Under the pieces are notes generated by a model. That model had not been told where the DNA came from and ran no database searches. It saw only the letters and a program-made list of their open reading frames with translations. From an uncultured Eubacteriales bacterium (GTDB taxonomy: Bacteria; Bacillota; Clostridia; Lutisporales; Lutisporaceae): DNA of 64,000 bases. A program made the translations under genes and the position numbers. The stretch is taken from contig OY969939.1 in the NCBI GenBank assembly GCA_963704785.1, forward strand, positions 2,383,475-2,447,474, written 5' to 3'. Positions within the stretch are counted from its first letter, which is position 1; every line of letters starts with the position of its first letter. Positions 18,162-57,817 of the stretch are shown piece after piece.

Positions 18162-18172
18162 TCCTTAAATAG

Positions 18173-19564
18173 TTATTTTTTTGACTGAACTAGGTGTATT
18201 GCCTCACCCTTTAAACCGCATACAGCTTCATGGAAAGCTTCGGATAAGGTTGGATGGGCATGTATAGTATTTTTGATGTCATCAATCTTTAATTTTGAGC
18301 TAATTGCAAGGGTACCCTCATGAATTAAATCTGAGGCATGTGGACCCATTATATGAACTCCGATTATTTCCTCTTGCATATTGGACATTACCTTTACAAA
18401 GCCTTCACTTTCACCAAGAGATAGAGCCTTACCATTAGCACCAAACATAAACTTGCTGGTCTTGTATTCCATACTCTGTTCCTTTGCCTCATCTTCTGTT
18501 ATACCAACAGTGGCAATCTCAGGGAATACAAATATACAGCTTGGGATAGGAGATTCTTGGTTGAACGCATGTCCATGTATTCTTTCTGCCACGTGAATTC
18601 CTTGATGAGATGCTGCGTGGGCAAGCATTATCTTACCATTAACATCTCCTATTGCATAAATACCCTTTATATTTGTTTCGTAGTTAGCATCTACCATGAT
18701 TGCTTTTCTGTTGAACTCAATGCCGACCTTTTCTAGGTTTAAGCCTTCTGTATGCGGAGTTCTTCCTGTTGCAATCAGAAGAGCCTCTGATTCTACTTCA
18801 AACTTACCCTTTTTATTCTCGCATAGAATGTAATAAAGATCATTTCTCTTTTCTATTTTATCAATTTTGCAGTTTGGATTCAACTCGATTCCCTTTTTCT
18901 TCACAGAAACAGAAAAACGTTTAACAATATCGCTGTCTACCCTATTTAGTATGCTGAATAAATCAATGACAGTAACTGCTGAACCCATAGCAGCAAATAT
19001 TCCTGCAAACTCCATACCTATTACACCACCACCGATTATAGTAAGGCGAGGAGGAATTTCCTTGAAGTTTAAGATGTCATCACTTGAAAGAATTCCTTCT
19101 ATATCATTACCTTCAATTGGTGGATTGCTAGATTTTGAGCCTGTTGCTATTATTATATTTTTTCCTGTAATCTCTTCTGTACTTCCATCAGGAAGCGTAA
19201 TAGTTACAGTGTTCTTATCCTTTAGGGTGGCTGTGCCATTTATGACTTCTATTTTATTAGCCTTAAGAAGCTGTTCAACACCAGAAACCAATTGGTCAAT
19301 AACCTTTTGCTTTCTGTTTTGAACCTCTTCAACATTTATGCTGTAGCCATCAACATTAATGCCAAATTCCTTTATATTTTTAAGGGTGTTTAAAATCTCT
19401 GCATTTCGCCAAAGAGCTTTTGTTGGGATACAGCCTCTATTTAGACATGTACCGCCAACCCTATCTCTTTCAACAATACAAACGTCAGATCCAAGCTGGG
19501 CAGCTCTTATAGCTGCCACATAACCGCCAGGACCTCCGCCTATTACTATAACATCTTTATTCAT
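18173..19564 (-). CDS. lpdA: Dihydrolipoyl dehydrogenase (glycine-cleavage L protein)
   Basis: 463 aa with GGGPGGY FAD motif and the redox-active GGTCLNRGCIPTK. Confidence 0.85.
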   Translation of the reverse strand: MNKDVIVIGGGPGGYVAAIRAAQLGSDVCIVERDRVGGTCLNRGCIPTKALWRNAEILNTLKNIKEFGINVDGYSINVEEVQNRKQKVIDQLVSGVEQLLKANKIEVINGTATLKDKNTVTITLPDGSTEEITGKNIIIATGSKSSNPPIEGNDIEGILSSDDILNFKEIPPRLTIIGGGVIGMEFAGIFAAMGSAVTVIDLFSILNRVDSDIVKRFSVSVKKKGIELNPNCKIDKIEKRNDLYYILCENKKGKFEVESEALLIATGRTPHTEGLNLEKVGIEFNRKAIMVDANYETNIKGIYAIGDVNGKIMLAHAASHQGIHVAERIHGHAFNQESPIPSCIFVFPEIATVGITEDEAKEQSMEYKTSKFMFGANGKALSLGESEGFVKVMSNMQEEIIGVHIMGPHASDLIHEGTLAISSKLKIDDIKNTIHAHPTLSEAFHEAVCGLKGEAIHLVQSKK

Positions 19565-19574
19565 AGGATTCTCC

Positions 19575-21034
19575 TTACTTATTCCACTTTAGCACTGGTG
19601 TTCTAGCTGCTTTTACTTCATCTAGTCTTCTAACTGGTGTGTCATGAGGTGCAGTCTTTAGAAGCTCTGGATTTGTCTTAGCTTCCTTAGCTATTTTAAT
19701 CATCGCATCAATGAAGTAATCCATAGTTTCCTTACTTTCTGTCTCTGTTGGCTCAATCATTATTGCGCTATCTACGATGAGTGGGAAGTAGATTGTCGGT
19801 GGATGATAGCCATAGTCTAGAAGTCTCTTTGCAATATCCAAGTGTTGATATCTCATGGCTATCAGGTCCTAAACCACCCAATACAAATTCATGCTTGCAA
19901 ATGCTATCAATAGGAAGATAGTAGATGGTTCTTAAGTCTTTCTTTCATATAGTTAGCATTAAGAACTGCCATTTCACTTGCTTTCTTAAGACCCTCTGCA
20001 CCCATAGTCAGTATATATGCATAAGCTTTAACCATAACACCAAAATTACCATAGAAGCTCTTTACTTTACCTATAGATAGAGGCTTATCATAATTTAACA
20101 CATATTTGTCAGCTTGCTTTTCTACAATTGGTACAGGAAGGAAGTCGACTAATTTCTTGGATACTCCAACAGGACCGCTTCCTGGACCGCCACCGCCGTG
20201 TGGGGTAGCAAAGGTCTTGTGTAGGTTCAAGTGAACCACGTCAAAGCCCATGTCTCCAGGTCTTGTAATTCCCATTATGGCATTTGTGTTTGCACCATCA
20301 TAGTATAAAAGACCGCCAGCTTCGTGTACTAGAGAAGCGATTTCCTTTATATTCTTTTCAAACAAGCCTAATGTGCTTGGATTTGTAAGCATCAAGCCTG
20401 CGATTTCATCGTTTAACGCAGCCTTTAAGCTTTCTAAATCAACTGCACCGTTTTTATCTGATTTGATTTCTACAATATCAAAGCCTGCTACTGATGCACT
20501 GGCTGGGTTTGTGCCATGAGCAGAGTCAGGAACTATTATCTTGTTTCTCTTATGGTCGCCTCTGTTTTGGTGGTAAGCCTTAATTATCATAAGACCGGAC
20601 AGCTCACCGTGAGCACCAGCTGCGGGCTGTAAGCTTACTTGCTCCATACCTGTTATTTCAGCAAGCATTTCAGCAAGCTTATACATTAGCTCAAGAGCAC
20701 CTTGCGCTGTTTCTACTGGCTGGTATGGATGTACGCCTGTAAGCTTTGGAAGTGAAGCCATATCTTCGTTTATCTTTGGGTTGTACTTCATAGTACAGGA
20801 GCCAAGAGGATAAAAGCCAGTATCAACTCCAAAGTTTTTATTTGAAAGCAGTGTAAAGTGTCTAACTACATCCACTTCACTAACTTCAGGAAGCTCTACT
20901 TCTTTTTCCTGAAGCATTTCTTTTGGGAATGTCTCGCTTAGATTTACTTCAGGCACATCACATGCAGGAAGAGTGTAAGCAATTCTGCCTTCTCTGGATA
21001 CTTCAAATATTAGTTTGTTATAATCCTTCATCAT
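19575..21034 (-). CDS. gcvPB: Glycine dehydrogenase (decarboxylating) subunit 2, interrupted
   Basis: ORFs 19907-21034 and 19575-19856 are collinear with GcvPB ([16 protein letters not shown]). There are two frame changes within 19.86-19.92 kb. Confidence 0.8.
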
Positions 21035-21042
21035 TACACCTC

Positions 21043-22388
21043 CTACATACCCTTCATGATATCAACCAATTGGTCGATTTCTGATTTTGTTCTCTTTTCT
21101 GTTACGCACAAAAGAAGTGCATTTTCCATGCATGGATAGTCACGAACCAGATCATAGCCACCGAGTATATCATGTTTTAAAAGCTCTGCATTTACTTCAG
21201 AAGCTTTTTTATTGCCTTTTACAACAAATTCCTTGAAGAATGGTTTGTTGAAAACAGGCTTGAATTTACCTGTAGCAATAAGCTGATTGTATGCATAGTG
21301 AGCTTTATTAGTGCTTTGCACTGCAACTTCCTTTAAGCCCTGCTTGCCCATAGTTGAAAGATATATAGCAGCAGTAAGTGCATTTAAAGCTTGGTTAGAA
21401 CAAATATTGGAGGTAGCCTTTTCTCTTCTTATATGCTGTTCTCTTGCTTGCAAGAGTAAGAACATAAGCTCTCTTGCCATCAACATCTGTTGTTTCACCT
21501 ATTATTCTGCCCGGAAGCTTTCTCATAAGCTTAGTTGTAGCTGCCATAAAGCCTAAGTATGGACCGCCGAAGCTTATGCTGTTTCCAAAGGATTGACCTT
21601 CGCCAACAACTATATCAGCACCTATTTCACCAGGAGTCTTTAGAATTCCAAGTGAGATTGGATCAACTACATTTACAATTAATAAAGCTTTGTTTTGATG
21701 TGTTATACTTTCTACTTCAGTTAAATCTTCAACTATACCAAAGAAGTTTGGATTTTGTACGATAACACCTGCTGTAGTATTTGATAAGGCCGCCTTCAAC
21801 TTTTCTATATCTGTAACACCATCTTGACTATCAATCTCTACTACTTCTACTCCAGCAAATCTCATATATGTTGCAAGTACCTTACGTACTTCAGGATGCA
21901 CTGTCTTTGAAACAACAATTGACTTTCTCTTTGTGTTTTCAGCAGCTAGCCTAGCAGCTTCAGCGCAGGCAGTAGCTCCATCATACATTGATGCATTTGC
22001 TACATCCATACCGGTAATATTAGCTATCATAGTCTGATATTCAAATATAACCTGTAAGGTTCCCTGGCTTATTTCAGGCTGATATGGAGTATAAGCTGTA
22101 TAAAACTCGGAACGTAAGGTAATATGCTTGATAACTGAGGGAATATAATGGTCATAAGCACCCGCCCCTAAGAAACATACCATATCATCTGTACTTTTAT
22201 TCTTGTTTGCAATACCATTTATATGCTTCGTAATCTCAAGTTCTGACATAGCCTCACCAAGGTTAAGCTTTCTGGAAAGTTTAACATCAGCAGGTATATC
22301 TGCAAACAGAGCATCAATTGAGTCTATTCCGATTGCTTTGCATCATTTGTTTTTCTTCAGTTTTTGTATTTGGTATATATGGAAACAT
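21043..22388 (-). CDS. gcvPA: Glycine dehydrogenase (decarboxylating) subunit 1, interrupted
   Basis: The N-terminal [15 protein letters not shown] starts at 22388. ORFs 21395-22249 and 21043-21498 continue the protein. There are two frame changes. Confidence 0.8.
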
Positions 22389-22399
22389 GTCATACCCCC

Positions 22400-22780
22400 C
22401 TATTGTTTGCTGCAATAGTCTTCATATGCTTCGGCATTCATAAGCTTATCTAGGTCTGACTTATCTGTTAATGAAACACTAACCAACCAGTTTGCATATG
22501 CATCTTGATTTAAAGCTGATGGGTCATCAACAACGGCTTCATTAGATTCAAGAACTGTACCTGAAACAGGCATATAAATGTCTGAAGCAGCTTTAACGGA
22601 TTCAACAGTACTAAAGGAATCTCTTATGCTAAATGTTGTATCTACTTCTGGCAATTCAACAAATACAATATCACCCAATGCATGTTGTGCAAAATCTGTT
22701 ATTCCTATATAAGCCTTTTCACCTTCTACCTTTACCCACTCATGATCTTCTGTGTAATATAAACCTTTTACTACGTTCAT
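22400..22780 (-). CDS. gcvH: Glycine cleavage system H protein
   Basis: 126 aa with the lipoyl-lysine motif ESVKAASD. Confidence 0.9.
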
Positions 22781-35524: not shown

Positions 35525-35791
35525 TTGAAAAAGGTAATTATTTATGGAAGTCATATGTGACCAGGATGTGGGGAGTTGAAAGAGGTTCTTTCACAAAAAG
35601 GCATAGATTTTATATACTTTGATATCAGTTTAGATTTTGGGGCATTGAAGAGATTTCTAAAGATTAGAGATACTAACGAAATATTTGATCCAGTAAGGGC
35701 AGGCGGAAGAGTAGGGGTACCTACTGTTTTGGTTGATGATAAAGTAATGCTTGGATTGGAAGAGGATCAAATAGAAGAACTACTGAAATAG
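35525..35791 (+). CDS. Glutaredoxin/NrdH-like small redoxin with in-frame TGA (putative selenocysteine, UPGC motif)
   Basis: AGGAGGGG SD 6 nt before the TTG at 35525. It reads LKKVIIYGSHM-TGA-PGCGELKEVL... in frame with ORF 35576-35791 (…GRVGVPTVLVDD…). The TGA at 35558-35560 occupies the first Cys of the CxxC motif. A hairpin at 35577-35593 has a GG-containing loop. Confidence 0.6.
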
Positions 35792-36732: not shown

Positions 36733-37272
36733 ATGAGAAAGATAATCAACAGTATTTTCAACTTAATAGTAATTTTTATTATAGTATTTTCATCGTTATA
36801 TTTAATATCAGCAGCTCAAACTATCAGTAACCCTACCAACATACCCTCAATATTGGGCTTTACCCCTCTTACCGTAATATCAGGGAGCATGAGCCCGGGT
36901 ATAGAAACTGGAGATATGGTTGTGATAAAAAAGAACATCGACAATATAAATCCGGGGGATATCATAACATATAGGCTGGATGATATACTGGTTACCCATA
37001 GGGTAAAGGAAATTTCTAAGGATGATATAAAAGAGGTGTTTGTTACTCAAGGTGATGCAAATAGTGTGTCAGATTATAAAACAGTAGATCGAAGCCAGAT
37101 AGTGGGTAAATACTTATTTAGAATTCCGTTAGGTGGGTATATTAAGGCAAGCTTAAGAGGAATGGCAGGTATATTGATTTTATTGGGATTGATTCTTATA
37201 GCACTCATGCTTGAAGTGCTTAAGTTTACTAATAACAAGCTGAAGGAAGTTGAAAAATGTTTATTAGAATAG
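36733..37272 (+). CDS. sipW: Signal peptidase I, SipW (archaeal/ER) type
   Basis: 179 aa with VISGSMSPGIETGDMVVIKK, THRV and TQGDAN motifs, plus a C-terminal TM helix. Confidence 0.8.
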   Translation: MRKIINSIFNLIVIFIIVFSSLYLISAAQTISNPTNIPSILGFTPLTVISGSMSPGIETGDMVVIKKNIDNINPGDIITYRLDDILVTHRVKEISKDDIKEVFVTQGDANSVSDYKTVDRSQIVGKYLFRIPLGGYIKASLRGMAGILILLGLILIALMLEVLKFTNNKLKEVEKCLLE

Positions 37273-37274
37273 AC

Positions 37275-37300
37275 AGCAGACAGATGTATATCTGTCTGCT
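37275..37300. terminator. Bidirectional terminator
   Basis: Perfect 11-bp stem AGCAGACAGAT-GTAT-ATCTGTCTGCT. Confidence 0.7.
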
Positions 37301-37304
37301 CTAT

Positions 37305-37780
37305 TCATATGAATAATTGCATGTCTGATTCTAAGGCTTCTTTTAGATAATCCTTTGCTTCTTTTACTTCAAGCTCAGGTATCATTTCCTCTTGCTTAAG
37401 CCCCATTATCTCCATAGATAATTTACAGCCGTAAAACTTAACACCCTTTTTTGAGCACCCTTCAAAAATGCTGTTAAGGGAGGGGTATCATCATCCTCCA
37501 TCATTTCAATAAGCATTTTCTTACCAATACCTGCAAAATTCATTTTTGATAAGGGTAAATCTTCTGGCCCCTTGGGTGTCATCACACCAAACATTTTCTC
37601 ATATAGTGACTTATCTTCTAAACTGAATTTTTTAGGATCTCTAACAAGACCTAAACCCCAAAAAGCAAAAAATATAGTGGTTTCTACATCTATAGTTCTT
37701 GCGGTATTTGCTAGTAATAGGGCAGCAAGTGCTTTATCATATTCTCCGCTAAATAAAAGAATGTTCATTTTCTTATTCAA
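37305..37780 (-). CDS. DsrE/DsrF-like (COG2210 'peroxiredoxin-like') sulfur-relay protein, one frame break
   Basis: Adding one base to the T6 run at 37447-37452 extends ORF 37406-37780 into ...KGVKFYGCKLSMEIMGLKQEEMIPELEVKEAKDYLKEALESDMQLFI*. Confidence 0.6.
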
Positions 37781-37865: not shown

Positions 37866-39194
37866 TTATTCCTTAATAGACTTATATTTTTCCAGATAGA
37901 ACTCTGAACTTTTATATATTTGAAAAAGAGCATTTATAAGGGCATCTATTTCCTCTTGAGTGTTGTAAACTCCAAAGCTTATACGCACCATGCCAGGATG
38001 AGGTAAATCACTATATCTTATTCTTTTCTTTATGTCTTTTTTTGAAATGTCTAAAAGTCTCTGGACATAAGGTTGAGCGCAGAAACAGCCGTTTCTGACT
38101 GCTATGCCAAACTCGTATGATAGGATAGTTGCCACAATTCTATGTGGTATGTCCTTTATGTTAAATGATATTATACCTAGCCTATCACTACAGTCAGTAG
38201 TATTCCCGTATAATTGTATACCTGGTACAGCTTTAAGCCTGTTTAGAGCATATTCTGTAAGAGCCTTTTCTTTCTTTTCTATATTTATCATACCTATATT
38301 ATTAAAGGTTTTTATTGCTTCTACTAAAGCTACAACGCCTATAACGTTTGGGGTTCCTGCCTCATCTCTCTCTGGTGCATCTGCCCACCTTATATAGTCA
38401 TGGGTAACTAGCTTGATGGTACCGCCGCCTTTATAGTCAGGCTCACCTCTCTGGAAGACCTCCTTAGGACCTATTAGCACACCTATTCCAAAGGGTGCAT
38501 ACATCTTATGTGCGGAGAAAACTAAGTAATCAATATGCTGAGGGGATGAGTCAGGCTTCATATCTAACTCTGCATGAGGCACTAGCTGTGCACCATCCAC
38601 CAATATTTTTGCTCTGTACTTATGGGCTATTTCTGCAATTTCGTGTATGGGATTTAAATAACCTGTGACGTTGGAGGCACCTGCAACTGCCACAAGCTTC
38701 ACTCGACCTTTGTACTCTCTAAGCTTGTATTCCAAGCTTTTGAGGGAAAGTCTACCATTAGAATCTACTGCGATATAGTCAACCTCATAATTACTTCTCC
38801 AAGGCAGGTCGTTGGAGTGATGCTCCATTTCTGTAGACAAAACGACATTTTTATGACTGTTAATATATAATCTATTTGAAAGCTTGTTTATTGCCTCGGT
38901 GGTGTTCTTTACATAAATAACCGTATTTATATCTAAATCTGCCTTTACAAAGCTTGCGACAATTTCTCTAGAATTATCATAAAAATCTGATGAATGCTGA
39001 GATTTGTAGCCTGTACCTCTATGAATTGAGGAATACCAAGGAGAAAAATTATTTACTGCTTGTAAAACAGATGCGAAAGGTGGAGTGGTAGCGGCATTAT
39101 CAAAATTAATACCTGTTACATATTCCCCATTTGATAGAGGTATAGGCGTATTGACTCCCACTACCAATCCTCTGTAGTTGATGCTAGTATCCAT
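37866..39194 (-). CDS. Class-V aminotransferase-fold PLP enzyme (cysteine desulfurase / selenocysteine lyase-like)
   Basis: 442 aa with FSAHKMYAPFGIG (PLP lysine) and a C-terminal RNGCFCAQPY. Confidence 0.65.
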   Translation of the reverse strand: MDTSINYRGLVVGVNTPIPLSNGEYVTGINFDNAATTPPFASVLQAVNNFSPWYSSIHRGTGYKSQHSSDFYDNSREIVASFVKADLDINTVIYVKNTTEAINKLSNRLYINSHKNVVLSTEMEHHSNDLPWRSNYEVDYIAVDSNGRLSLKSLEYKLREYKGRVKLVAVAGASNVTGYLNPIHEIAEIAHKYRAKILVDGAQLVPHAELDMKPDSSPQHIDYLVFSAHKMYAPFGIGVLIGPKEVFQRGEPDYKGGGTIKLVTHDYIRWADAPERDEAGTPNVIGVVALVEAIKTFNNIGMINIEKKEKALTEYALNRLKAVPGIQLYGNTTDCSDRLGIISFNIKDIPHRIVATILSYEFGIAVRNGCFCAQPYVQRLLDISKKDIKKRIRYSDLPHPGMVRISFGVYNTQEEIDALINALFQIYKSSEFYLEKYKSIKE

Positions 39195-45284: not shown

Positions 45285-47165
45285 TTAACCTCTTTCTTTG
45301 AACAGTTCTACCATCCCATCAATAAGCTTGTTCAGACCATGTTTTTCAAAAAAATCTTGATACTCCTCTGACGAATTAAAATCATTAATACTAGAACTAA
45401 CTATGTAAACATGAATAAGAATATCTTTATCAGTAAATTCAGTTTCTAGTAGTTTTGAATTATCCTCTGTTTTAATTACACAGTAATTATTTTTACCTAT
45501 TTTCTGAACCTTTGACTTATCATTAGCTATGTATTCAGCAAATTCTCTATTATATAACTGCATTTCTTGAGTGCTTTCTGTTTTATAGGTGGTAAATGAA
45601 ACTGTGCATGGTGGCATACTTAGTGTATTAAATTGAAAGTAGCGGATATCTGAAATATCGTTTGGTTCCTGTCTTGGCTTTGCAGGATCAGTCATCTCAA
45701 ACATACCGATTCTTGACATTATGCTTATAGTAGCTTGATTAGAATCTAAAAAATCCAATTTGCAGCTGAACCTTTCTTCAAAATCAGAAGGAGCCATAGC
45801 CATGTCTGAGCTATCTTCACTTACATTGCCACTAGATGTTTTTGGTAATTCCATTTTATCTATGCTTATTGTGCTAATAGTGTTCTCAATGCAAGTAGCA
45901 AGCTTCTCGGCAATTTCGGATAAAAAGGTAGTATTGATTTTGTCAGGGGTGTCTTCTAGAGAATGAGTATAGCTTTTATTTAAATCTGGAACAGTTGTAA
46001 AGCATACAGCGTGCGGAAATGTTTTATGGTCACTGATAAAATCTTCCTTATATGATTCCACATTTATATTTTGCGCTTTTAGATTATCAATTATTTTTTC
46101 TGATGCTTCCTTCGATTCAACAGTTTCATTGACTAGTATATAAAGACTAGAGCTGTCACTGTTTCCTAAGCAATCAAGGTTAATGTCAAATACAGAAGTG
46201 TATTTACCCTTTATATATTCTAAGAAGTAGCTGCTACCTCTCGGGGTAAGCAATTTTTCTTCTTCGTTAAAGGCACAAAATATAATGTCGCAGGGTGGCT
46301 TACTGTTACTATATACTTTCTTCAAGTATCTTGCGGTTTCAAGCATTGTAGAAACGCCAGATGAATTGTCTAATGCACCTCTCCATATAAAATAGTTTTC
46401 ATCGCCAGCTTTGCCTATACTTCCTATATGGTCAAAGTGGGCACTTATAAGAAGTGCACTATTATGGTTTTCCCCCTCAATGACACTGGCTATATTATTG
46501 CACTCCTTTTCTTGAATATCGATATCAGTACTAAAATGTATGATTTTCCCTATATTGCTTTGGAGCATATTATATGTCTCCACTGTAACCCTTATTAGTG
46601 GTATACATCCTTTAGAGTAGAACTCTGAAGGCTTTGAATACTTCTTCGGAGCTTTAAAAATTATCATCTTAGTATGGACATCTTTATTGTATTCAGCTAT
46701 ATTTTGAATATTATCTGTCAGCACTATACAGTCTGTGTTAGAGGGTTCGTTATATAAAGGCAGTGAAATATCTGCATCATCCAAATGTACCTCGACATAA
46801 TCCTTACCATATACAAATGCATGGACTGGTTTCCCTTTGTCAATCAACTCTAAGTTTATTCTACCGATACTTTCTATATTCTTTTTATATGGAATATGAT
46901 AAGCATTATCCAAAGTGGCTAAGGACATCTCTTTAAACTGACTGGCAATATAGTCTGCAGCATTTTTATTGCCATCTGTACCAGACTGCCTTCCTCCGCA
47001 TTCATCGGAGCAAAGGTATTCCAGATTCTTTGATATCTGATCTGTATTCTGCTCTTGCAGAGAGATAGGTGTTTGATTGTTACTTACTTCTTTGCTGCAG
47101 GATATAGTAAAACTGCACAAAATCATAAGTAGAATTAGAAGGTTTTTTGATGTTTTTTTCGACAT
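45285..47165 (-). CDS. M28-family metallopeptidase lipoprotein
   Basis: 626 aa, lipobox FTISC, and SAHFDH, GALDNSSGV and FNEEE zinc-ligand motifs. Confidence 0.7.
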   Translation of the reverse strand: MSKKTSKNLLILLMILCSFTISCSKEVSNNQTPISLQEQNTDQISKNLEYLCSDECGGRQSGTDGNKNAADYIASQFKEMSLATLDNAYHIPYKKNIESIGRINLELIDKGKPVHAFVYGKDYVEVHLDDADISLPLYNEPSNTDCIVLTDNIQNIAEYNKDVHTKMIIFKAPKKYSKPSEFYSKGCIPLIRVTVETYNMLQSNIGKIIHFSTDIDIQEKECNNIASVIEGENHNSALLISAHFDHIGSIGKAGDENYFIWRGALDNSSGVSTMLETARYLKKVYSNSKPPCDIIFCAFNEEEKLLTPRGSSYFLEYIKGKYTSVFDINLDCLGNSDSSSLYILVNETVESKEASEKIIDNLKAQNINVESYKEDFISDHKTFPHAVCFTTVPDLNKSYTHSLEDTPDKINTTFLSEIAEKLATCIENTISTISIDKMELPKTSSGNVSEDSSDMAMAPSDFEERFSCKLDFLDSNQATISIMSRIGMFEMTDPAKPRQEPNDISDIRYFQFNTLSMPPCTVSFTTYKTESTQEMQLYNREFAEYIANDKSKVQKIGKNNYCVIKTEDNSKLLETEFTDKDILIHVYIVSSSINDFNSSEEYQDFFEKHGLNKLIDGMVELFKERG

Positions 47166-47247
47166 AATGTTATCCTTTCCAATTAGATTGTTTTGATTTT
47201 AGAATACATAGATTAATATTGACAATGAAATTATCTAAATAATAAAG

Positions 47248-47282
47248 TTTTGGTAAACCTTATTTTACAAGGTTTACCAAAA
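47248..47282. terminator. Hairpin terminator downstream of the 47314-47679 gene
   Basis: 14-bp stem TTTTGGTAAACCTT/AAGGTTTACCAAAA. Confidence 0.55.
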
Positions 47283-47313
47283 CTTATTTTTAAAGAGATT
47301 TTATAATTATTTT

Positions 47314-47679
47314 CTAGTATGTAGAACAATGTCTGTAATCATACTCTGGCGTTGTAATAGAGAAACCATAACTGCAAGTACTGCATCTATATGTTGTCAT
47401 TTTAGTTCTAGACCATTTTTCAATTGCACAGTGGGTATGTGTAGTGCATACTGTCATTTCTCCTGTATATGACCATGCAGTATAATAAATATCCGTAATA
47501 TTAAGAGTATAAGAACCACATTCTGGGCAGTTTATTCCTCTAGTTACTTCTTCAATAGCTTGTTGCTCTACATTATAATTTGTGACAGATTCACTTGTGT
47601 TTGCATATGAAACTGTACTAAAGCATAAAGTTAAAATCAGAGCAAGAACTATTGGTAAAAATGTTTTAATTTTTTTCAT
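47314..47679 (-). CDS. Small secreted Cys-rich protein
   Basis: 121 aa with GGAGGTG SD and signal peptide ...STVSYA. Two CxxC knuckles (CPECGS, CSTCSY) plus further Cys/His residues. Confidence 0.5.
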   Translation of the reverse strand: MKKIKTFLPIVLALILTLCFSTVSYANTSESVTNYNVEQQAIEEVTRGINCPECGSYTLNITDIYYTAWSYTGEMTVCTTHTHCAIEKWSRTKMTTYRCSTCSYGFSITTPEYDYRHCSTY

Positions 47680-47720
47680 TATGTCACCTCCATTAATTAT
47701 ATATTATATATAATTATAAC

Positions 47721-47774
47721 TTTATATACTACATTTGTAAAATATGAGTATATATGTGTACAAGCTGTATAACT
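47721..47774 (+). repeat. 54-bp direct repeat flanking the IS (left)
   Basis: TTTATATACTACATTTGTAAAATATGAGTATATATGTGTACAAGCTGTATAACT, identical to 49760-49813. Confidence 0.9.
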
Positions 47775-49759
47775 CGGGTATTTGACAGTTGAATAAAGAA
47801 AAAATTACCGAAAGCCTTGATTTAGGCTTATTTTTTTGTCAAATTATGCATTTTGATGTTGCGCATTTTATCGCATTGTGTTATGATATAAGGATGAGGA
47901 GGGGATGCTAAAAATGAGACTTAATGTGACCAAATCGAAAAATGCGGCTTCGCTATATGTAATAAAATCCGTTTACAACAGTAAAACTCAATCAAATTAT
48001 TCTAAGATCGTTGAAAAACTTGGAACCGAAGCTGAGCTTAGAGAAAAACTTAATGGTGCTGATCCATACGAATGGGCAAAAGAATATATTAGGGAACTTA
48101 ACAATAAGGAAAAAGAAGAAAAGCGTGATGTGCTCGTTAAATATTCTCCCTCAAAGCTTATCAACAAAGGTGAACAGCGTTCCTTCAATGGTGGGTATTT
48201 ATTCCTTCAAAAGATATATCACGAACTTGGATTACATAAGATTTGCAAGGAAATTTCCAAAAAGTATAAATTCGATTTTGACTTGGATTCAATTCTGTCA
48301 AGATTAATTTACGGTAGAGTAATCTTTCCTTCTTCAAAGCTTGCAACATATGAACTTTCAAAAGGTTTATTGAACAACCCAATTTTGATTTACATCAAAT
48401 ATACAGGGCTCTTGAAGTCCTTGCAAAAGAAACAGATTTTATTCAATCCTCTTTGTACGAAAACAGCTTAAAAGTTTCAAAAAGAAATACTAATGTACTT
48501 TACTATGATTGCACTAATTACTTTTTTGAAATCGAACAGGAGGATGGCGATAAACAATATGGGCCTTCTAAAGATCACAAGCCAAATCCTATCGTTCAAA
48601 TGGGGTTATTTATGGACGGAGACGGCATTCCTCTTGCTTTTAGTATAAACAAAGGAAACACAAACGAGCAGCTGACCTTAAAGCCATTGGAAAAGAAAAT
48701 TTTATCCGACTTTGAACTTTCAAGGTTTGTCGTCTGTACAGATGCAGGACTGGCCTCAGAAGATAATCGAAAGTTTAATAATAAAAATGGTCGGGATTTT
48801 ATTACTACACAATCTATTAAAAAATTAAAAGAACACCTGAAAAAATGGGCTCTTGCTTCAGATGGCTGGAAACTACCAGGAAGTGAGAAAACTTATGACA
48901 TTTCTACTCTTGATGAAATGATAGATAAAGCTACTCCTGAAGATAAGGCAAAAATACGAACAAAAGCATTTTACAAAGAACGCTGGATCAATGAAAACGA
49001 TTTTGAACAAAGACTTATTGTAACCTATTCTATTAAATACAGAGATTATCAGCGTAAAATCCGTAGCTCTCAAGTAGAACGCGCTCGAAAGGCAATAGAA
49101 AACAACCCAACAAAAATAAAGAAATGCAATGCTAACGATTACAAAAGGTTTATTAATAAAACAAGCTGTACCCCTGATGGAGAAGTCGCTGATAAAGAAA
49201 TCTACAGCATTGATTCTACTCTCATCCAGAAAGAAGAAACATTTGATGGTTTTTATGGAGTTTGTACAAGCCTTGAAGATGACGTGTCTAAAATCATCAA
49301 GGCAAATCACAGGAGATGGGAGATTGAAGAGTGCTTTAGGATTATGAAAAGTGAATTCAAGGCACGTCCTGTGTATTTAAGCAACGATGACCGGATTGAA
49401 GCACATTTCAACACATGCTTTATATCGCTAATTATTTATAGATTGCTTGAAAAGCGACTCGGCGAGAATTTTACCTGTCATGAGATTATTTCTGGGCTTA
49501 AGGATATGGAATTCTTTGAAATTAAAGGTGAAGGTTACGTTCCAACCTACACAAGAACTGATTTAACCGATGCATTACATGAAACGTTTGGGTTTCGTAC
49601 GGATTATCAAATTGTTGCTTCGAGTATGATGAAAAAAATTTTAAAAGATACGAAAAAATAAAAAACATTACGCACTTTTTACCAAAACACGAAATCCTGC
49701 AACGCCTTCTGCTTCAAGGCGTTACAGGATTTTTATTTCGTTCAAGTGTCAAATACGGG
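47775..49759 (+). mobile_element. IS1634-family (IS4 superfamily) insertion sequence, 1985 bp
   Basis: Terminal inverted repeats C(G/C)(G/C)GTATTTGACA(G/C)TTGAA, a single DDE transposase gene and an internal terminator at about 49703-49745. It is flanked by a 54-bp duplication. Confidence 0.8.
47905..49661 (+). CDS. IS1634-family DDE transposase, one frame break
   Basis: ORFs 47905-48471 and 48453-49661. Adding one A to the A4 run at 48360-48363 gives ...ELSKRFIEQPNFDLHQIYRALEVLAKETDFIQSSLYENSLKV... Confidence 0.75.
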
Positions 49760-50099: not shown

Positions 50100-50368
50100 T
50101 ATATAATGCGTTGAGCGGAAATAGTAAGTAGTAGGATTCTTTCAGAGAGCCGTAAGGAGTATATACTCCACTGGTGTGATACGGTAGTGTCTTGTTATTG
50201 AACTCACCCGGGAGCAGCTGCCTGAAATTATGAAATTAGGGTAAGACGTCAGCCCACGTTATAGGGATAGATGATTATAGTCATCGATAAAGTGGATTTT
50301 CATATGAAAATCAATTTGAGTGGTACCACGGATAATATCTCCGTCTCTTTTTAGAGGCGGAGTTTTTT
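50100..50368 (+). promoter_or_regulatory. T-box leader (Leu specifier CUC)
   Basis: AGAGA box; specifier context GAA-CTC-A at 50203-50205; T-box sequence AATTTGAGTGGTACCACGG at 50313-50331; terminator CTCCGTCTCT-TTTT-AGAGGCGGAG plus a T-run at 50339-50368. Confidence 0.85.
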
Positions 50369-50403
50369 ATTTTTGTAATAATTATTTGAAGGGAGTGTAT
50401 AAA

Positions 50404-52852
50404 ATGACATATTCAAAAGAAATAGATCGCAAATGGCAAAAGGTATGGGAAGATACTAAATTATATAAATTTCATCCCGAAAAAGTTGATAAAAAGCTTT
50501 ATACTCTGGAGATGTTCTCCTATCCATCAGGGGCAAAGCTTCATGCAGGACACTGGTACAATTATGCACTAAGCGATTCATGGGCAAGAATGAAGAAGAT
50601 GCAGGGCTATGAGATATTTCAGCCTATGGGCTTTGATGCTTTCGGGTTGCCTGCAGAAAACTATGCAATAAAGACAGGGATTCATCCTCAGGATTCCACA
50701 ATAAAGAACATTGAGACAATGGAAAGACAGCTAAAAGAAATGGGAGCTATGTTTGACTGGGACTATGAGGTTATAACATGCATACCTGAGTATTATAAAT
50801 GGACTCAATGGCTATTCTTGACACTTTATAAAAGTGGGCTGGCATATAGAAAGGAAGCACCTGTAAACTGGTGTCCTAAGTGTAACACAGTGCTTGCAAA
50901 TGAGCAGGTAGTTGATGGTCATTGTGAAAGATGTGAGACAGAAGTTACAAAGAAAAACCTTACACAATGGTTTTTCAAAATAACTGATTATGCACAAGAG
51001 CTGCTTGATAAGCTAGAGGGACTTGATTGGCCTGAAAAGACAAAGAAGATTCAAACCAACTGGATTGGCAGATCTGAAGGTGCAGAAATAGAATTTAAGG
51101 TAGATGATGCAGATATAAGCTTCAAGGTGTTTACAACAAGAGCAGATACCTTGATGGGAGTAACCTATGTTGTGCTTGCACCAGAAAATGAGCTTGTAAA
51201 GCAGCTTACTAAGGATGCATATAAAAAGGCTGTTGCAGAATACCAGGATTCAACAAAGAAAATACTGAAATTGACAGACTTTCCACTACAAAAGAAAAAA
51301 CAGGGGTATTTACAGGCTCCTATGCTATTCATCCTATAACAGGTGAAAAGGTTCAGATTTGGATTGCTGACTATGTACTTGGAAACTATGGTACTGGCTG
51401 CGTAATGGCGGTTCCAGCTCATGATGAGAGAGATTTTGAGTTTGCAACAAAGTATGAGCTTCCTATAAAGAGGGTAATTAAGAGTAAAGAAGCTGTAGAA
51501 GACATTCTTCCTTTTATAGAATATGGTATATTGGTAAATAGCGGAGAATTTGATGGCATAACCACAGAAGAGGGTAAAATCAATATAGTAAAGAAGCTGG
51601 AAGAGGATAATAAAGGACAGCTTAAGATAAATTATAGGATTAGAGACTGGCTGGTTTCCAGACAAAGATATTGGGGCTCACCTATTCCTATAATACACTG
51701 TGAAAAGTGTGGAGCTGTACCAGTACCTGAAAAGGATTTGCCAGTATTACTTCCATACGATGTAGAATTTGCACCAGATGGAGAATCACCATTAAAGAAA
51801 AGTGAAGAATTTATGAACACTACTTGTCCTAAATGTGGAGGTCCTGCTAAGAGAGAGGCTGATACTTTGGATACCTTTGTATGTTCATCTTGGTACTATT
51901 TAAGATATCCAGACAATAAGAATGACGATAAGACTATTTGACACAGGAATGGATAAACAAAATGCTGCCTGTTGACAAATATATAGGCGGAGCAGAGCAT
52001 GCTGCAATGCATCTGCTATATGCAAGATTTATAACAAAAGCACTTACGAGATGCTGGCTATTTAAATTTTGATGAACCGTTTAAATCACTTGTACATCAA
52101 GGTACAATACTTGGACCAGATGGTTTTAAAATGAGTAAATCAAAAGGAAATGTGATATCTCCAGATATATATATTGATGAGTACGGTTCGGATGTATTCA
52201 GAATGTATCTTGCCTTTGGTTTCGCATATATTGAGGGTGGCCCTTGGAGTGATGATGGAATAAAGGCTATGTCAAGGTTTGCTGGCAGGGTTGAAAGAAT
52301 GGTTGAGCGAGTAGAAGAGCTTGCAGGACATAAAGGAAAGACTGATATGGGCAAGAGTGAAAAAGAGCTGAACTATGTAAGAAATCTCGCTATTAAGAGT
52401 GTTACAAAGGATGCAGAAGATGTTCCAATTTAATACGTCTATAGCCAAATCAATGGAGCTTTTAAATGCACTATACAAATATGACGCAGATGTCGAGAAC
52501 AAAAACATGACTCTGTTTAGAGCTGCAATTGAGGATATGATTAAGCTTCTTTCTCCATTTGCACCGCATTTTGCAGAAGAAATGTGGGAGAAGCTTGGCG
52601 AGAGCTTACTCTATATTTAATGAAAAATGGCCATCATGGGATGAAGAAGCCCTTGTTAAAGATGTAGTTGAGATTGCAATTCAAGTAAATGGTAAGGTTA
52701 AAGGCAGAATGGAAATTTCATCATCAGCAGAACAGCAGGAAATTGAGAAAATGGTAATAGAAAATGATGAAGTGAAGCCTATGCTTGAGGGTAAGCAAAT
52801 AGTAAAAGTTATAGTTATTAAAAATAGGCTGGTAAATATAGTAGTAAAATAG
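50404..52852 (+). CDS. leuS: Leucine--tRNA ligase, interrupted by at least 6 frame changes
   Basis: Collinear ORFs 50320-51339, 51405-51941, 52131-52433, 52399-52620 and 52559-52852, plus two short unlisted frames at 51.93-52.06 kb. They contain the HAGH-type motif ([11 protein letters not shown]), CP1 zinc Cys pairs and the KMSKSKGN motif. Confidence 0.85.
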
Positions 52853-52986: not shown

Positions 52987-54825
52987 ATGTTTAGAAAAAT
53001 TATGACTAAGTGTATTTTGAGTGGACTGTTAATATTTTATAGTACAAATGGAATTTTAAGTGCAAATGAAATGACGCCTCCTAAAATGAACATATTGCTA
53101 TTGAACTCGTATAATTTTTCTGCTAAAGAATTATGGGTGGGGTTTTCTGTATTCTTATGCGTAGTAGTCGCTATAAACTTTCTTTTGTTTATAAATATAA
53201 AAAAGAGAAGAATGGCTGAAAAAGACTTGCAGCGGAGCGAGGGTATAACAAGAGCGACACTTAATGCAACAGCGAACGGAATTATAGTAATCAGCTTAGA
53301 TAAGAAAATAATAGACTGTAATCAGCTATTTTTAAGTATGTGGAAGTTTCCTATTGAGATCGTAGAAAACAAGGACTTGAGTGCAATGCTTCTATATGGT
53401 CTGGAGCAAGTATATGAACCTACAATTCATCATGACTGGATTAAAGAGTGCTTTGAGCAAGCCGAGGCTGCTTTTGATATTATATATCTAAAGGATGATA
53501 GAGTTTATGAGATATACTCAGAGTCGTTAAAAATTCAAGGAGAATTGCAAGGCAGAGTATGGAGTTTTAAGGATATAACAGTTCAAAAACAAATAGAAAA
53601 TGAGCTGCAAAGAAGTGAAGAACGTTATAGACGTTTGGTGGAGCTTAGTCCAGATGCCATATATATGGTAGTTGATGGGAAAATTGAATTTACAAATGAA
53701 GCAGGTAAAGAGCTAGTAAGAGCACCCCATGGAATAGATATAAATGGAAGATCTATATTGGACTTTGTATGCTACGAACACGATGAAGCGTTTAAGAACT
53801 TCTTGTTAGGACAAAATGATAATAATGAAGATTTTCCTTTGGTGGAAATGAAGTTTAAAAGACTGGATAATACTCTTGTAGATGTTGAAGCTGCAACAAC
53901 TGAATTTATCTATGACAGAAAAAAAGCTGTCCTAAGCTTTATAAGAGATATTTCAGAAAGAAAAGAAACAGAACTATTAAAGATAAGCATTAAGGAGAAA
54001 ATAGAACAGCTAAATGAGGCATTGGAATATGATAAGCTTAAGACAGAGTTTTTTGCAAACATCTCACACGAGCTAAGAACTCCTATAAATGTTATTTTAG
54101 GTGCTCAGAAGCTGCTTGGACTATTTTTGAAGGATGTTGAGCTGGGGGATAAGCAGGAGAAGCTGACAAAGTATATATATATGATAAGACAGAACTGTTA
54201 CAGGCTTATGAGGACGGTAAACAATCTAATTGATATTACGCGTATTGATGCAGGGTTCTTCAATGTAAATCTAAGAAATTACGATATCATAAATATTGTT
54301 GAGCGTATAACTTTATTGGTAGCTGAATATGTACAAGATAAGGGGATAGAGCTGGTTTTTGATACTAAGCTTGAGGAAAAAATAATAGCTTGTGATGAAG
54401 ACAAAATTGAAAGGATAATGTTGAATCTTCTATCAAATGCCATTAAATTTACAAATAATGATGGAGTTATAACAGTAGACATCAAGGAAGAATTGAATAA
54501 TATTGTAATAATGGTAAGTGATAGCGGTATTGGGATACCAGAGGGAAAGCTTAATACAGTTTTTGAGAAATTTGTACAAGTTGATAAATCATTTATAAGG
54601 GACCATGAAGGAAGTGGTATAGGTTTATCTTTAGTAAAATCATTAGTTGACTTGCATGGAGGAAGTATTGATCTTAGAAGTGAAGTTGGCAAAGGCACAA
54701 CCTTTGAAGTAAGGCTGCCCATTATTTTAAGCGCAGAAGAAGAAGTGGCAGTAACATCAGAAGTTGTTTATCAAAGCTCGACAGAAAGAATAGATGTGGA
54801 ATTCTCTGATATATATTTTGATTAA
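52987..54825 (+). CDS. Membrane PAS-domain sensor histidine kinase (no adjacent response regulator)
   Basis: H-box FFANISHELRTP, N-box LLSNAIKF and G-boxes DSGIGIP / GSGIGLSL. Two PAS-like segments. The start is chosen 6 nt after GGAGG. Confidence 0.75.
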   Translation: MFRKIMTKCILSGLLIFYSTNGILSANEMTPPKMNILLLNSYNFSAKELWVGFSVFLCVVVAINFLLFINIKKRRMAEKDLQRSEGITRATLNATANGIIVISLDKKIIDCNQLFLSMWKFPIEIVENKDLSAMLLYGLEQVYEPTIHHDWIKECFEQAEAAFDIIYLKDDRVYEIYSESLKIQGELQGRVWSFKDITVQKQIENELQRSEERYRRLVELSPDAIYMVVDGKIEFTNEAGKELVRAPHGIDINGRSILDFVCYEHDEAFKNFLLGQNDNNEDFPLVEMKFKRLDNTLVDVEAATTEFIYDRKKAVLSFIRDISERKETELLKISIKEKIEQLNEALEYDKLKTEFFANISHELRTPINVILGAQKLLGLFLKDVELGDKQEKLTKYIYMIRQNCYRLMRTVNNLIDITRIDAGFFNVNLRNYDIINIVERITLLVAEYVQDKGIELVFDTKLEEKIIACDEDKIERIMLNLLSNAIKFTNNDGVITVDIKEELNNIVIMVSDSGIGIPEGKLNTVFEKFVQVDKSFIRDHEGSGIGLSLVKSLVDLHGGSIDLRSEVGKGTTFEVRLPIILSAEEEVAVTSEVVYQSSTERIDVEFSDIYFD

Positions 54826-54906
54826 ATAAACAGCAGATAATATATAGCATGTGTGCAATTTGAAGCATACATGCTTTTATATTTATAGGATATGCTAAAT
54901 AATAAT

Positions 54907-54961
54907 ATTGACAAGTATAAATAGAAATAATATATTACATATAGATATAGGATACATATGT
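54907..54961 (+). promoter_or_regulatory. copA promoter with a downstream TACAnnTGTA palindrome
   Basis: TTGACA (54907-54912)-17 nt-TATATT (54930-54935), with TACATATGTA at 54952-54961. Confidence 0.4.
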
Positions 54962-55023
54962 AGGGTATATTTGTATTCCATATATAAGATTCACAAACTA
55001 TAGGAGAGGGTGGGAGTGAGAAA

Positions 55024-57270
55024 ATGAAAAAAACCTTTAAAATAATAGGCATGACCTGAGCATCTTGTGTAAAAGCTGTTGAGAAGGCAGTAAAAAAACT
55101 TGATGGAATATCAGATATTAATATTAACCTTGCAACTGAAATAATGGTTGTAAGCTATGATAAAAACAAGCTAAATGAAAAAAACATCATTGGAGCAGTA
55201 GAAAAGGCAGGTTACAAGGCTTTAGAGATTGAGGCTAATAATCGCGTGGATGAAGATAAAAATAGAAAAGAAAAAGAAATAAGAACACTATGGACAAAGT
55301 TTCTTATTTCTGCGATTTTCTCTATTCCATTGCTATATATAGCAATGGGGCCAATGGTTTCCTGGTGGAACTTTCCTATTCCTAGCTGGCTTGAACCTAT
55401 GCAGTACCCGCTAACTTATGCTATAGCAGAAATATTACTGGTAATACCAGTGATTATAGCAGGTAATAAATTCTACACAGTGGGGTTTAAGGCTTTAGTC
55501 AGAAGAAGTCCCAACATGGATTCTTTGGTTGCAATGGGTACATCTTCTGCAATATTATACAGCTTGTATTCCACTTATAGAATCTCAATAGGGGATCATA
55601 TGTATGTAGAAAATTTATACTTTGAAACAGCAGGAATAATAATTACTTTGATATTGTTAGGAAAATCTCTTGAAGCAGTATCTAAGGGTAGAACCTCAGA
55701 GGCAATAAAGAAGCTAATGGGACTTACTCCAAAGACAGCTATAGTAATACAGGATGAGAAGGAAATAGTGATACCAATTGAAGAGGTCGAGGTAGGCGAT
55801 ATAATACTGGTTAAGCCTGGTGAAAAGGTACCTGTAGATGGAGAAGTTATAGAAGGATTAACTTCTATAGATGAGTCAATGCTGACTGGAGAAAGCATTC
55901 CAGTTGAGAAAAAAATTGGAGATAAGGTCATAGGTGCCAGCATAAACAAAAATGGTTCTATAAGATTTAGAGCGACAAAGGTAGGCAGCGAAACAGCATT
56001 GGCACAAATTATTAAGCTTGTAGAGGATGCGCAGGGTTCAAAGGCGCCGATTGCGCAGATGGCTGATATAGTATCAGGCTACTTTGTGCCTACGGTATTT
56101 ATTATAGCATTGGTTTCAGCAGTAGTGTGGTTGCTTGTAGGACAGACTATAGTATTTGCACTTACAATATTCATTGCAGTTCTAGTTATTGCTTGTCCTT
56201 GTGCATTGGGGCTTGCCACTCCAACGGCTATAATGGTTGGAACAGGCAAAGGTGCAGAGTACGGAGTATTGATAAAGGGTGGAGAAGCCTTAGAGAGCAC
56301 TCATAAGATAAAGACAATTGTATTTGACAAAACAGGTACAATTACAGAAGGAAGACCGGAAGTAACAGACATAGCTACCACAGAGCTAATAGATAAGGAT
56401 ATACTTTTGCAGCTTGCTGCCTCAGCTGAAAAGGGCTCAGAACATCCTTTAGGAGAAGCTATAGTGAGAGGGGCGGAAAAGCAAGGTCTGGAGATTTTGA
56501 AGCCTTCAAGCTTCAATGCTATTCCAGGACATGGCATAGAGGTTACTATAGATGGCAAGCAAATATTACTAGGTAACAAAAAGCTTATGCAAGATAGAGA
56601 TATAAGCTTGCAGCTCTTAGAAAAGCAATCGGATAAGCTGGCATCAGAAGGCAAGACACCTATGTATATAGCTATAGAAAATCAACTTGCTGGTATAATT
56701 GCAGTAGCTGATATAGTTAAGGAAAGCAGTGTCAAGGCTATAGAAAAGCTGCACAAAATGGGTATAGAGGTTGCTATGATAACCGGGGACAACAGAAGAA
56801 CAGCGGAAGCAATTGCAAAACAGGTAGGAATAGACAGAGTACTTGCAGAAGTGCTACCTCAAGACAAAGCCAATGAGATAAAGAAGCTTCAGGCAGAAGG
56901 CAAAAAGGTTGCTATGGTAGGAGATGGTATAAATGACGCACCAGCTTTGGCACAAGCTGATATAGGTATCGCTATAGGCTCAGGCACAGACGTTGCAATG
57001 GAATCAGCAGATATAGTGTTGATGCGAAGCGACCTTATGGATGTTCCTACAGCCATACAGCTAAGCAAGAGCACAATCAGAAATATTAAGCAGAACCTGT
57101 TCTGGGCATTTGGCTACAATGTTGCAGGAATACCAATAGCAGCAGGAGTATTGTATGCATTTGGTGGACCATTGTTAAACCCTGTTTTCGCCGCTGCTGC
57201 AATGTCTCTCAGCTCAGTATCAGTATTGACAAATGCATTGAGACTCAAAGGATTTAAACCATATAAATAA
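55024..57270 (+). CDS. copA: Copper-translocating P1B-type ATPase with in-frame TGA in the N-terminal metal-binding CxxC motif
   Basis: The ATG at 55024 follows AGGAGAGGGTGGGAG. It reads [48 protein letters not shown] in frame (offset of 120 nt) with ORF 55144-57270. That ORF carries [16 protein letters not shown] and the other P-type ATPase motifs. Confidence 0.8.
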
Positions 57271-57285
57271 ATGGAGGAATGTAAA

Positions 57286-57501
57286 ATGAAGGTACAAATA
57301 TCTATTGAAGGAATGACCTGCGGACATTGCTCTGCACGTGTAGAAAAGGCATTAAAGGCAGTTGACGGAATTGTTGATGCAAAAGTGGATTTGGCTAACA
57401 AAAATGCTACTGTAGAATTATCCAGCAATGTTGATGATAATGTTTTGAAGGAAGCTGTAGAAGATGCAGGCTATGATGTAACAGACATCAAGAGAATGTA
57501 G
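57286..57501 (+). CDS. copZ: Copper chaperone CopZ (HMA domain)
   Basis: GGAGG SD 8 nt before the ATG at 57286, with the GMTCGHC motif (both Cys encoded as TGC/TGT-type codons). Confidence 0.85.
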   Translation: MKVQISIEGMTCGHCSARVEKALKAVDGIVDAKVDLANKNATVELSSNVDDNVLKEAVEDAGYDVTDIKRM

Positions 57502-57513
57502 CTTGAAAGGTAG

Positions 57514-57657
57514 TGGAGTTATGTCGGGAGAAAGCATGAAAAATACAGACTGCTTTTAGAAAGTCATATGAAAACTTGTTTGATAAATAGAATCCAATCA
57601 GGTGAAACAGAAGTCGTAGATGAGCTGTTAGTAACTATTGAAAAAATGATGAAATAA
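57514..57657 (+). pseudogene. csoR: C-terminal remnant of a CsoR/FrmR-family metal-sensing repressor
   Basis: The open frame ...KYRLLLESHMKTCLINRIQSGETEVVDELLVTIEKMMK* resembles the CsoR C-terminal helix with its H-x3-C ligand pair. The N-terminal two-thirds are absent. Confidence 0.4.
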
Positions 57658-57671
57658 GCAATTTACTTAAT

Positions 57672-57713
57672 AAAGCAAAAATTAAGGCTAGTATTTGTCT
57701 TAATTTTTGCTTT
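57672..57713 (+). terminator. Terminator of the cop operon
   Basis: 15-bp stem AAAGCAAAAATTAAG/CTTAATTTTTGCTTT followed by a T-rich tail. Confidence 0.65.
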
Positions 57714-57787
57714 ATTCTTTTTAATAATATTATTGACATATCTAAAATAAAAAATACCAAATACGTAATTAAGAAACATAATTACAA

Positions 57788-57817
57788 TTGACATACATAA
57801 CAGTAAAGGTTTATAAT
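57788..57817 (+). promoter_or_regulatory. Promoter upstream of the radical-SAM gene
   Basis: TTGACA-18 nt-TATAAT. Confidence 0.5.

Follow-up and report, generated by a model that had tools for sequence, protein, structure and literature searches.

A stretch of 64,000 nucleotides from contig OY969939.1 (forward strand, positions 2,383,475 to 2,447,474; GenBank assembly GCA_963704785.1, an uncultured Eubacteriales bacterium of the Lutisporaceae), hereafter called the window, carries the copper-export gene copA, followed by the copper chaperone gene copZ and a remnant of the copper-sensing repressor gene csoR (Table 1). Codon 12 of copA is UGA and falls where the CxxC copper site of the N-terminal metal-binding domain, of the HMA type, has its first ligand. 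This codon is very probably decoded as selenocysteine (Sec), and the product would then be a Cu(I)-exporting P1B-1 ATPase with a U-x-x-C site in its sole N-terminal domain.

The copA frame opens with the ATG at 55024–55026, crosses the TGA at 55057–55059, continues with the residues ASCVK and joins the 708-residue open reading frame at 55144–57270 unbroken. The result is a continuous read-through frame of 748 residues, in which the 736 codons beyond the TGA are intact. An earlier reading of the window, the original prediction, had likewise placed the upstream segment in frame with the 708-residue frame and had begun it at ATG 55024 behind a Shine–Dalgarno site, which is here GGGAG, with a spacing of seven bases. 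When Cys was put at the TGA, the product matched the Pfam HMA model PF00403 over its whole length (residues 4–65 of the product, model positions 1–62 of 62, 67.8 bits), and this domain was matched only if the TGA was read through. Because the HMA domain spans residues 4–65, Met41, the listed start at 55144, lies mid-domain and is not a natural start, as had been argued in the original prediction. A pattern of 81 bases combining the HMA motif with TGA found one match in the window and none in 100 shuffled sequences.

The full product scored 685.2 bits against TIGR01525 (cut-off 346.25) and 653.2 bits against TIGR01511 (cut-off 397), and it matched the Pfam E1-E2_ATPase and Hydrolase domains. 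The catalytic motifs of P-type ATPases (TGES, DKTGT and GDGxNDxP) are all intact, and the membrane motifs CPC, N-x6-YN-x4-P and M-x2-SS-x5-N are all present; the last two are presumably the signature of the Cu(I)/Ag(I) subgroup P1B-1. In comparisons with solved structures, the HMA domain proved to be of the same type as those of human ATP7B (7xuk) and of Bacillus subtilis CopA (1p6t, 2rml, 1kqk and 1opz), the latter also being strong matches. The GMTCxSC motif of the ATP7B domains corresponds column for column to GMT-U-AS-C in the window, so that the TGA aligns with the first Cys, and it also aligns with the Cys of orthologues; its placement on the first ligand Cys of GMTCxxC was thus correct in the original prediction. 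Cys-type CopA proteins of Firmicutes have the P1B-1 membrane signature in common with the window, and likewise the copA-copZ(-csoR) operon. The window differs from Cys-type CopA and ATP7B in having TGA, not TGT or TGC, for the first copper ligand, and a single HMA domain where those have two or six.

Close relatives of the gene were found by protein search with the read-through product, after which their DNA was fetched. Of the seven loci obtained (L153–L159), one came from a JGI metagenome, three from NCBI assemblies and three from Logan assemblies of sequencing runs: L153 is the JGI metagenome, L154 the 4.19-Mb chromosome OW818645.1 of GCA_942492835.1, a 94% relative, L155 a Lutisporaceae assembly, L156 a Logan contig of the same gene, L157 and L158 two further Logan assemblies, and L159 GCA_029238945.1. 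All seven loci, in six other assemblies, have TGA at the same codon, at 88–98% protein identity, and in each the TGA is preceded by an in-frame M/V-KK(T/H)FKIIGMT and a ribosome-binding site. The copA alignment to L153 and L154 contains no gaps over 2.3–2.5 kb. The 11 codons upstream of the TGA differ across these loci by at least six synonymous changes and a single non-synonymous one, plus a change of start codon (GTG in L154, ATG elsewhere); the non-coding DNA directly 5′ of these codons diverges freely. Judged by these substitutions, the 11-codon upstream frame is under purifying selection. Conservation of this kind, with mostly synonymous change, would not be expected of a dead leader peptide.

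Public databases annotate the close relatives uniformly as truncated ATPases that start inside or just past the HMA site. The closest proteins, P0003 (98% identical, 708 residues) and P0001 (94%, 780 residues), both start at the equivalent of Met41, and P0002, P0004, P0005 and P0006 (88–90%, 805 residues) start just past the CxxC position. In the next-closest proteins, P0007–P0016 (84–85% identical), the first domain reads GMTCASC or GMTCAAC, so the Sec form found in the window makes up a small clade within the Cys forms.

The original prediction had proposed looking for orthologous copA genes with TGA or Cys at this site, and both kinds were found: TGA in L153–L159, in two genomes at a greater distance and in about 60 loci of metagenomes, and Cys in P0007–P0016 and most species-representative loci. 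Of 80 such copA loci, 75 have Cys at the TGA codon, one has Ser in a degenerate GMGSDHC, two are not readable in frame and one is cut by a contig end. The two loci with TGA belong to a Lutispora assembly (L002) and a Tepidibacter assembly (L030). Both encode two-domain pumps in which the TGA (at 3908 in each) lies in the second HMA domain, compared with the first in the window clade, a difference that suggests independent switches between Cys and Sec in different lineages. The same unbiased sample of 80 genomes yielded 167 HMA motifs, in which the only stops were the two TGA codons, both on the first Cys; none of the 167 had an in-frame stop on the second Cys. A pattern scan of metagenome contigs gave 72 hits. 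About 60 of them proved to be genuine HMA domains carrying TGA at the first Cys, and most of these lead into ATPase frames of 680–890 residues; nine hits were chance matches. Because the relatives are annotated as truncated, copper-pump selenoproteins are missed systematically; by the metagenome scan, there are dozens of them.

Two further observations were made among the metagenome loci. One ATPase (L147, 1686–2021, minus strand) has two tandem HMA domains, both with TGA on the first Cys. Four non-ATPases (L084, L119, L128 and L151) have the same TGA in an HMA domain; three are short proteins with a long N-terminal leader, and in one the HMA domain is C-terminal in a longer frame.

A hairpin 3′ of the UGA had been noted in the original prediction as having four pairs and giving poor support for a selenocysteine insertion sequence (SECIS). 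The hairpin at 55075–55091 is present, but it has six pairs, three of them G-U, and is accompanied by weak lower pairs joining 55061–55064 with 55102–55105 and 55067–55068 with 55098–55099. The bSECIS model specifies an apical loop of 3–9 nucleotides with G in its first two positions, an upper stem of 4–16 base pairs, a UGA-to-loop distance of 16–37 nucleotides, and a folding energy of −7.5 kcal/mol or lower (PMC13188914). With a loop of five nucleotides starting with G, a stem of six base pairs and a spacing of 21 nucleotides, the window hairpin falls within these limits. The earlier view of the support as poor was too pessimistic: weak when taken alone, the hairpin lies within these limits and is backed by compensatory changes in related Sec-type genes, described below. 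A search with Rfam at gathering thresholds returned nothing at the TGA site, and in the window found only a T-box element, glycine riboswitches and a pan motif elsewhere.

Nearly all of 56 distinct Sec-type sequences have a hairpin 16–40 nucleotides 3′ of the UGA. Plain folding energies across orthologues were confounded by GC content and were replaced by same-gene controls and synonymous-codon randomisation. By this measure, the mean z-score was −1.33 at the 56 Sec sites and −0.28 at 38 Cys HMA sites of the same genes (Mann–Whitney p = 1.7e-6), with 43% versus 8% of sites below −1.64. A single consensus structure was tried for all 56 sequences and did not fit, the hairpin occurring in at least three registers. 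Because the register varies, pair counts were made on subgroups sharing a peptide motif. Among carriers of the peptide [AT]VE[KR][AT][VI], all six hairpin pairs were formed in five of five Sec-type genes and in one of 15 Cys-type genes. At one place in the hairpin, where the seventh and eleventh codons after the UGA pair through their third bases, these Sec-type genes have U-A, G-C or A-U. In the subtype to which the window belongs, 100% of cells were paired, compared with 17–53% when the partners were slid by 1–3 columns. Close relatives keep the hairpin; a seventh pair is U-A in L155 and L157 and C-G in L159, and one U-G pair has changed to C-G in L155. A second subtype (GUUGAUA-GGGC-UAUCAAC and variants) was 89.7% paired, and its covariation score was reached by none of 500 shuffles. 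On this comparative evidence, compensatory changes preserve the window hairpin among related Sec-type genes.

A Sec-containing cation-transporting ATPase was counted among the known selenoprotein families by 2007 (PMC1976440), and a 2016 survey of more than 5200 genomes listed 32 such genes in 25 organisms (PMC5029168); the original prediction had mentioned such listings in selenoproteome surveys, and the literature bears this out. The features by which the family is recognised computationally are all found, by sequence comparison, in the window copA: a Sec/Cys pair, the UxxC motif, homologues with TGA elsewhere and a SECIS. It is almost certainly a further member of this catalogued selenoprotein family, in one more lineage. 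The two are alike in the P1B ATPase, the UxxC TGA, the Cys orthologues and the downstream hairpin, and the function of the known family is, as in the window, predicted by computation. Relative to the known family, of which ABB15669.1 was compared by description only, the window copy belongs to an uncatalogued lineage close to Lutisporaceae assemblies, carries Sec in the first HMA domain and has lost a second, Cys-type domain. It is unusual only locally, in that loss (shared with L153) and in the internal deletion of csoR in the window; otherwise, it confirms a known family.

HMA domains in which Sec can stand in for a ligand Cys are also described by NF041115 ('UxxU metal-binding (seleno)protein') and NF045683 ('MerT/CopZ fusion-like heavy metal transport selenoprotein'). 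These proteins are small and soluble or are MerT fusions and, unlike the window protein, are not P-type ATPases. Membership of NF041115 was rejected for the window protein (47.6 bits against a cut-off of 95). NF045683, which was matched only by the window CopZ (36.4 bits against 375), was likewise rejected.

A second TGA in place of a CxxC Cys had been reported in the window by the original prediction, and it was recovered in a glutaredoxin-like gene at 35525–35791 (plus strand), which has a TTG start and the site AGGAGG. The gene reads HM-TGA-PGC, with the TGA at 35558–35560, and is followed by the hairpin UGAAAGA-GGU-UCUUUCA at 35577–35593. With Cys substituted for the TGA, the product scored above the cut-off for Pfam Glutaredoxin and gave sub-threshold matches to the NCBIfam models TIGR02196 and NF041212. 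This second candidate selenoprotein offers indirect support for Sec decoding by the organism. Near this gene, a DsrE/DsrF-like gene (37074–37780, minus strand; frameshift near 37490) adjoins a gene for a SufS-family cysteine desulfurase (37866–39194, minus strand), which weakly resembles a selenocysteine lyase model.

Several points weigh against Sec at codon 12. The hairpin in the window is weak, with its three G-U pairs, and its loop reads GA, where GG or GU is commoner. Its z-score is −0.99 when compared with dinucleotide shuffles and −1.13 under randomisation of synonymous codons; neither is significant alone, and since the single-sequence fold is not significant, the case for a SECIS rests on the comparison among genes. 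In that comparison, the conserved peptide itself accounts for part of the hairpin potential, and the subgroups used for the pair counts are small, with members related to one another. No selA, selB, selC or selD lies within the 64-kb window, and ARAGORN found no tRNA there; Sec decoding by this genome is inferred only from the two candidate Sec genes and the taxon. The assembly has many frame errors elsewhere in the window. Finally, a 2026 review describes the members of the ATPase family as predicted, not demonstrated, to contain Sec.

The alternative that survives best, although very unlikely, is that the TGA is a true nonsense codon and that copA is a pseudogene or yields only the truncated pump from Met41. 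The metal-binding domain of CopA-type pumps is regulatory, and a truncated pump could still transport copper. Gene callers give exactly such Met41-type products in the relatives, and the window holds an inactivated csoR and many broken genes. Against this, seven loci of six other assemblies have kept the TGA and its 11 upstream codons, in which most changes are synonymous; the 736 codons that remain are intact, and the downstream hairpin covaries. Met41 lies inside the HMA fold, and no GGAGG-like site was seen by eye upstream of it. Furthermore, the stop falls on the one residue at which the Sec ATPase family is known to use Sec. The original prediction had preferred Sec to a random nonsense change on account of the second TGA in the window; the conserved TGA in the seven loci, purifying selection on the upstream frame and Cys in the next-closest orthologues lead to the same preference.

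Still less probable is that the UGA is read by another route, such as a reassigned code (Trp or Gly), near-cognate suppression or insertion of Cys on tRNA(Sec). TGA serves as the stop in none of 33 well-supported genes of the window (23 end in TAA and 10 in TAG), which is unusual for a sample of this size, and insertion of Cys at UGA is possible under selenium scarcity. However, under a reassigned code TGA would be spread over all genes, and besides copA and the glutaredoxin-like gene, no TGA-containing frame in the window matches a recognised gene. In both genes the TGA stands opposite Cys of a CxxC motif and not opposite Trp or Gly, and a SelB-type mechanism is indicated by the conserved hairpin. 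Since the two CxxC sites are the only places with an in-frame TGA, a reassigned genetic code was rejected. The probability that the TGA is a TGT or TGC misread in sequencing or assembly is negligible: many frames in the window are disrupted (leuS, which is intact in a close relative, five times; gcvPA, gcvPB, glyA and the DsrE-like gene are split), but the disruptions examined are frame changes without base substitutions, copA aligns without gaps to L153 and L154, and the same TGA recurs in the seven loci of six other assemblies, from four different sources.

It is proposed for Sec decoding at codon 12 that the hairpin would recruit SelB carrying Sec-tRNA(Sec) as the ribosome meets the UGA, a step taken from the established bacterial pathway, and that Sec would be inserted at position 12. 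Together, Sec12 and Cys15 would make up the Cu(I) site of the regulatory domain, to be loaded by CopZ, and transport itself would proceed through the CPC site in the membrane. A selenolate is softer and has a lower pKa than a thiolate, and it is predicted to alter the Cu(I) affinity or the exchange rate of the regulatory domain. Sec would serve here as a metal ligand in a transporter domain and not as a redox catalyst, which places this protein among few such cases. The window protein would provide a clean system, with a single Sec-only domain, for the effect of a selenolate on Cu(I) binding and on hand-over from CopZ.

A further suggestion is that the UGA is not a mere substitute for Cys but a selenium-dependent switch of copper tolerance, by which copper export would be tied to the selenium supply. 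The suggestion arises because the Sec-type HMA domain is the only metal-binding domain and csoR is broken. If it were true, a full-length pump with a selenolate–thiolate Cu(I) sensor would be made when selenium is present, and without selenium, translation would stop at codon 12 or an unregulated pump would be made from Met41. Such a switch is considered improbable.

The window and L153 are without the second, Cys-type HMA domain that is present in L154–L159 (approximately 55204–55221 in the window versus 10078–10277 in L154). With this domain lost, the Sec-type domain is the sole metal-binding domain of the window CopA. Downstream of copA, the copZ frame is 57271–57501, and its GMTCGHC site is encoded with ordinary Cys codons, as stated in the original prediction. 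Intact csoR, encoding 121 residues, lies 3′ of copZ in L153–L157, and the window copy reads for 12 codons before a stop; the deletion may mean that the operon is derepressed, or it may be an assembly artefact.

Table 1. Features of the copA locus in the window.
Feature	Position	Strand	Remarks
Sigma-70-type promoter-like site, TTGACA-17 nt-TATATT	54908..54936	+	11 of 12 consensus matches, best in 54700–57800; consensus match only
Palindrome TACATATGTA, candidate operator for copper repressor	54953..54962	+	Between promoter-like site and ribosome-binding site
Ribosome-binding site, GGGAG	55012..55016	+	7 nt 5′ of ATG 55024; purine-rich site kept in relatives
copA, full coding sequence	55024..57270	+	748 codons, codon 12 probable selenocysteine; P1B-1 Cu(I)-type ATPase, single N-terminal HMA
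HMA metal-binding domain, motif GMT-U-AS-C	55033..55218	+	Residues 4–65, PF00403
In-frame TGA, probable selenocysteine codon	55057..55059	+	First ligand position of CxxC copper site
SECIS-like element	55061..55105	+	Upper hairpin 55075–55091: GCUGUU, loop GAGAA, GGCAGU; −11.4 kcal/mol
Internal Met41, false start chosen by open reading frame finders and gene callers	55144..55146	+	Inside HMA domain
copZ, copper chaperone, ordinary GMTCGHC site	57286..57501	+	Likely start at second ATG, giving 71 residues as in relatives
csoR remnant (copper-sensing repressor)	57521..57664	+	Internal deletion of about 222 nt; two ends out of frame
Terminator-like hairpin closing operon	57669..57716	+	

Upstream of the operon, a terminator-like hairpin at 54846–54875 ends the preceding histidine-kinase gene, 5′ of the promoter-like site. 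The order of terminator, promoter-like site, palindrome and copA makes ATG 55024 the first start 3′ of the promoter-like site. The palindrome TACATATGTA has three matches in the window against 1.47 expected, a count that is not significant, so that its position alone is suggestive. It is present upstream of copA in L154 too, and L153 has a different inverted repeat, GTAGTGTAAA-TAC-TTTACACTAC, at this place.

Elsewhere in the window, leuS (50320–52852, plus strand) contains five frame changes behind an intact T-box leader (50102–50351), which could be assembly indels or mark a pseudogene; in L154, a relative with 96% identity, leuS is intact and encodes 814 residues. On the minus strand, frame changes interrupt each of the glycine-cleavage and serine genes gcvPA, gcvPB and glyA (16939–22400), which lie behind a glycine riboswitch. 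In gcvPA, a seeming in-frame TGA at 22343 was rejected as a Sec codon, being a frameshift artefact. An M28 peptidase gene and a DDE transposase gene (47905–49661, probably one frameshifted gene) occupy 45285–49661, between a radical-SAM gene and leuS, which are adjacent in L154.

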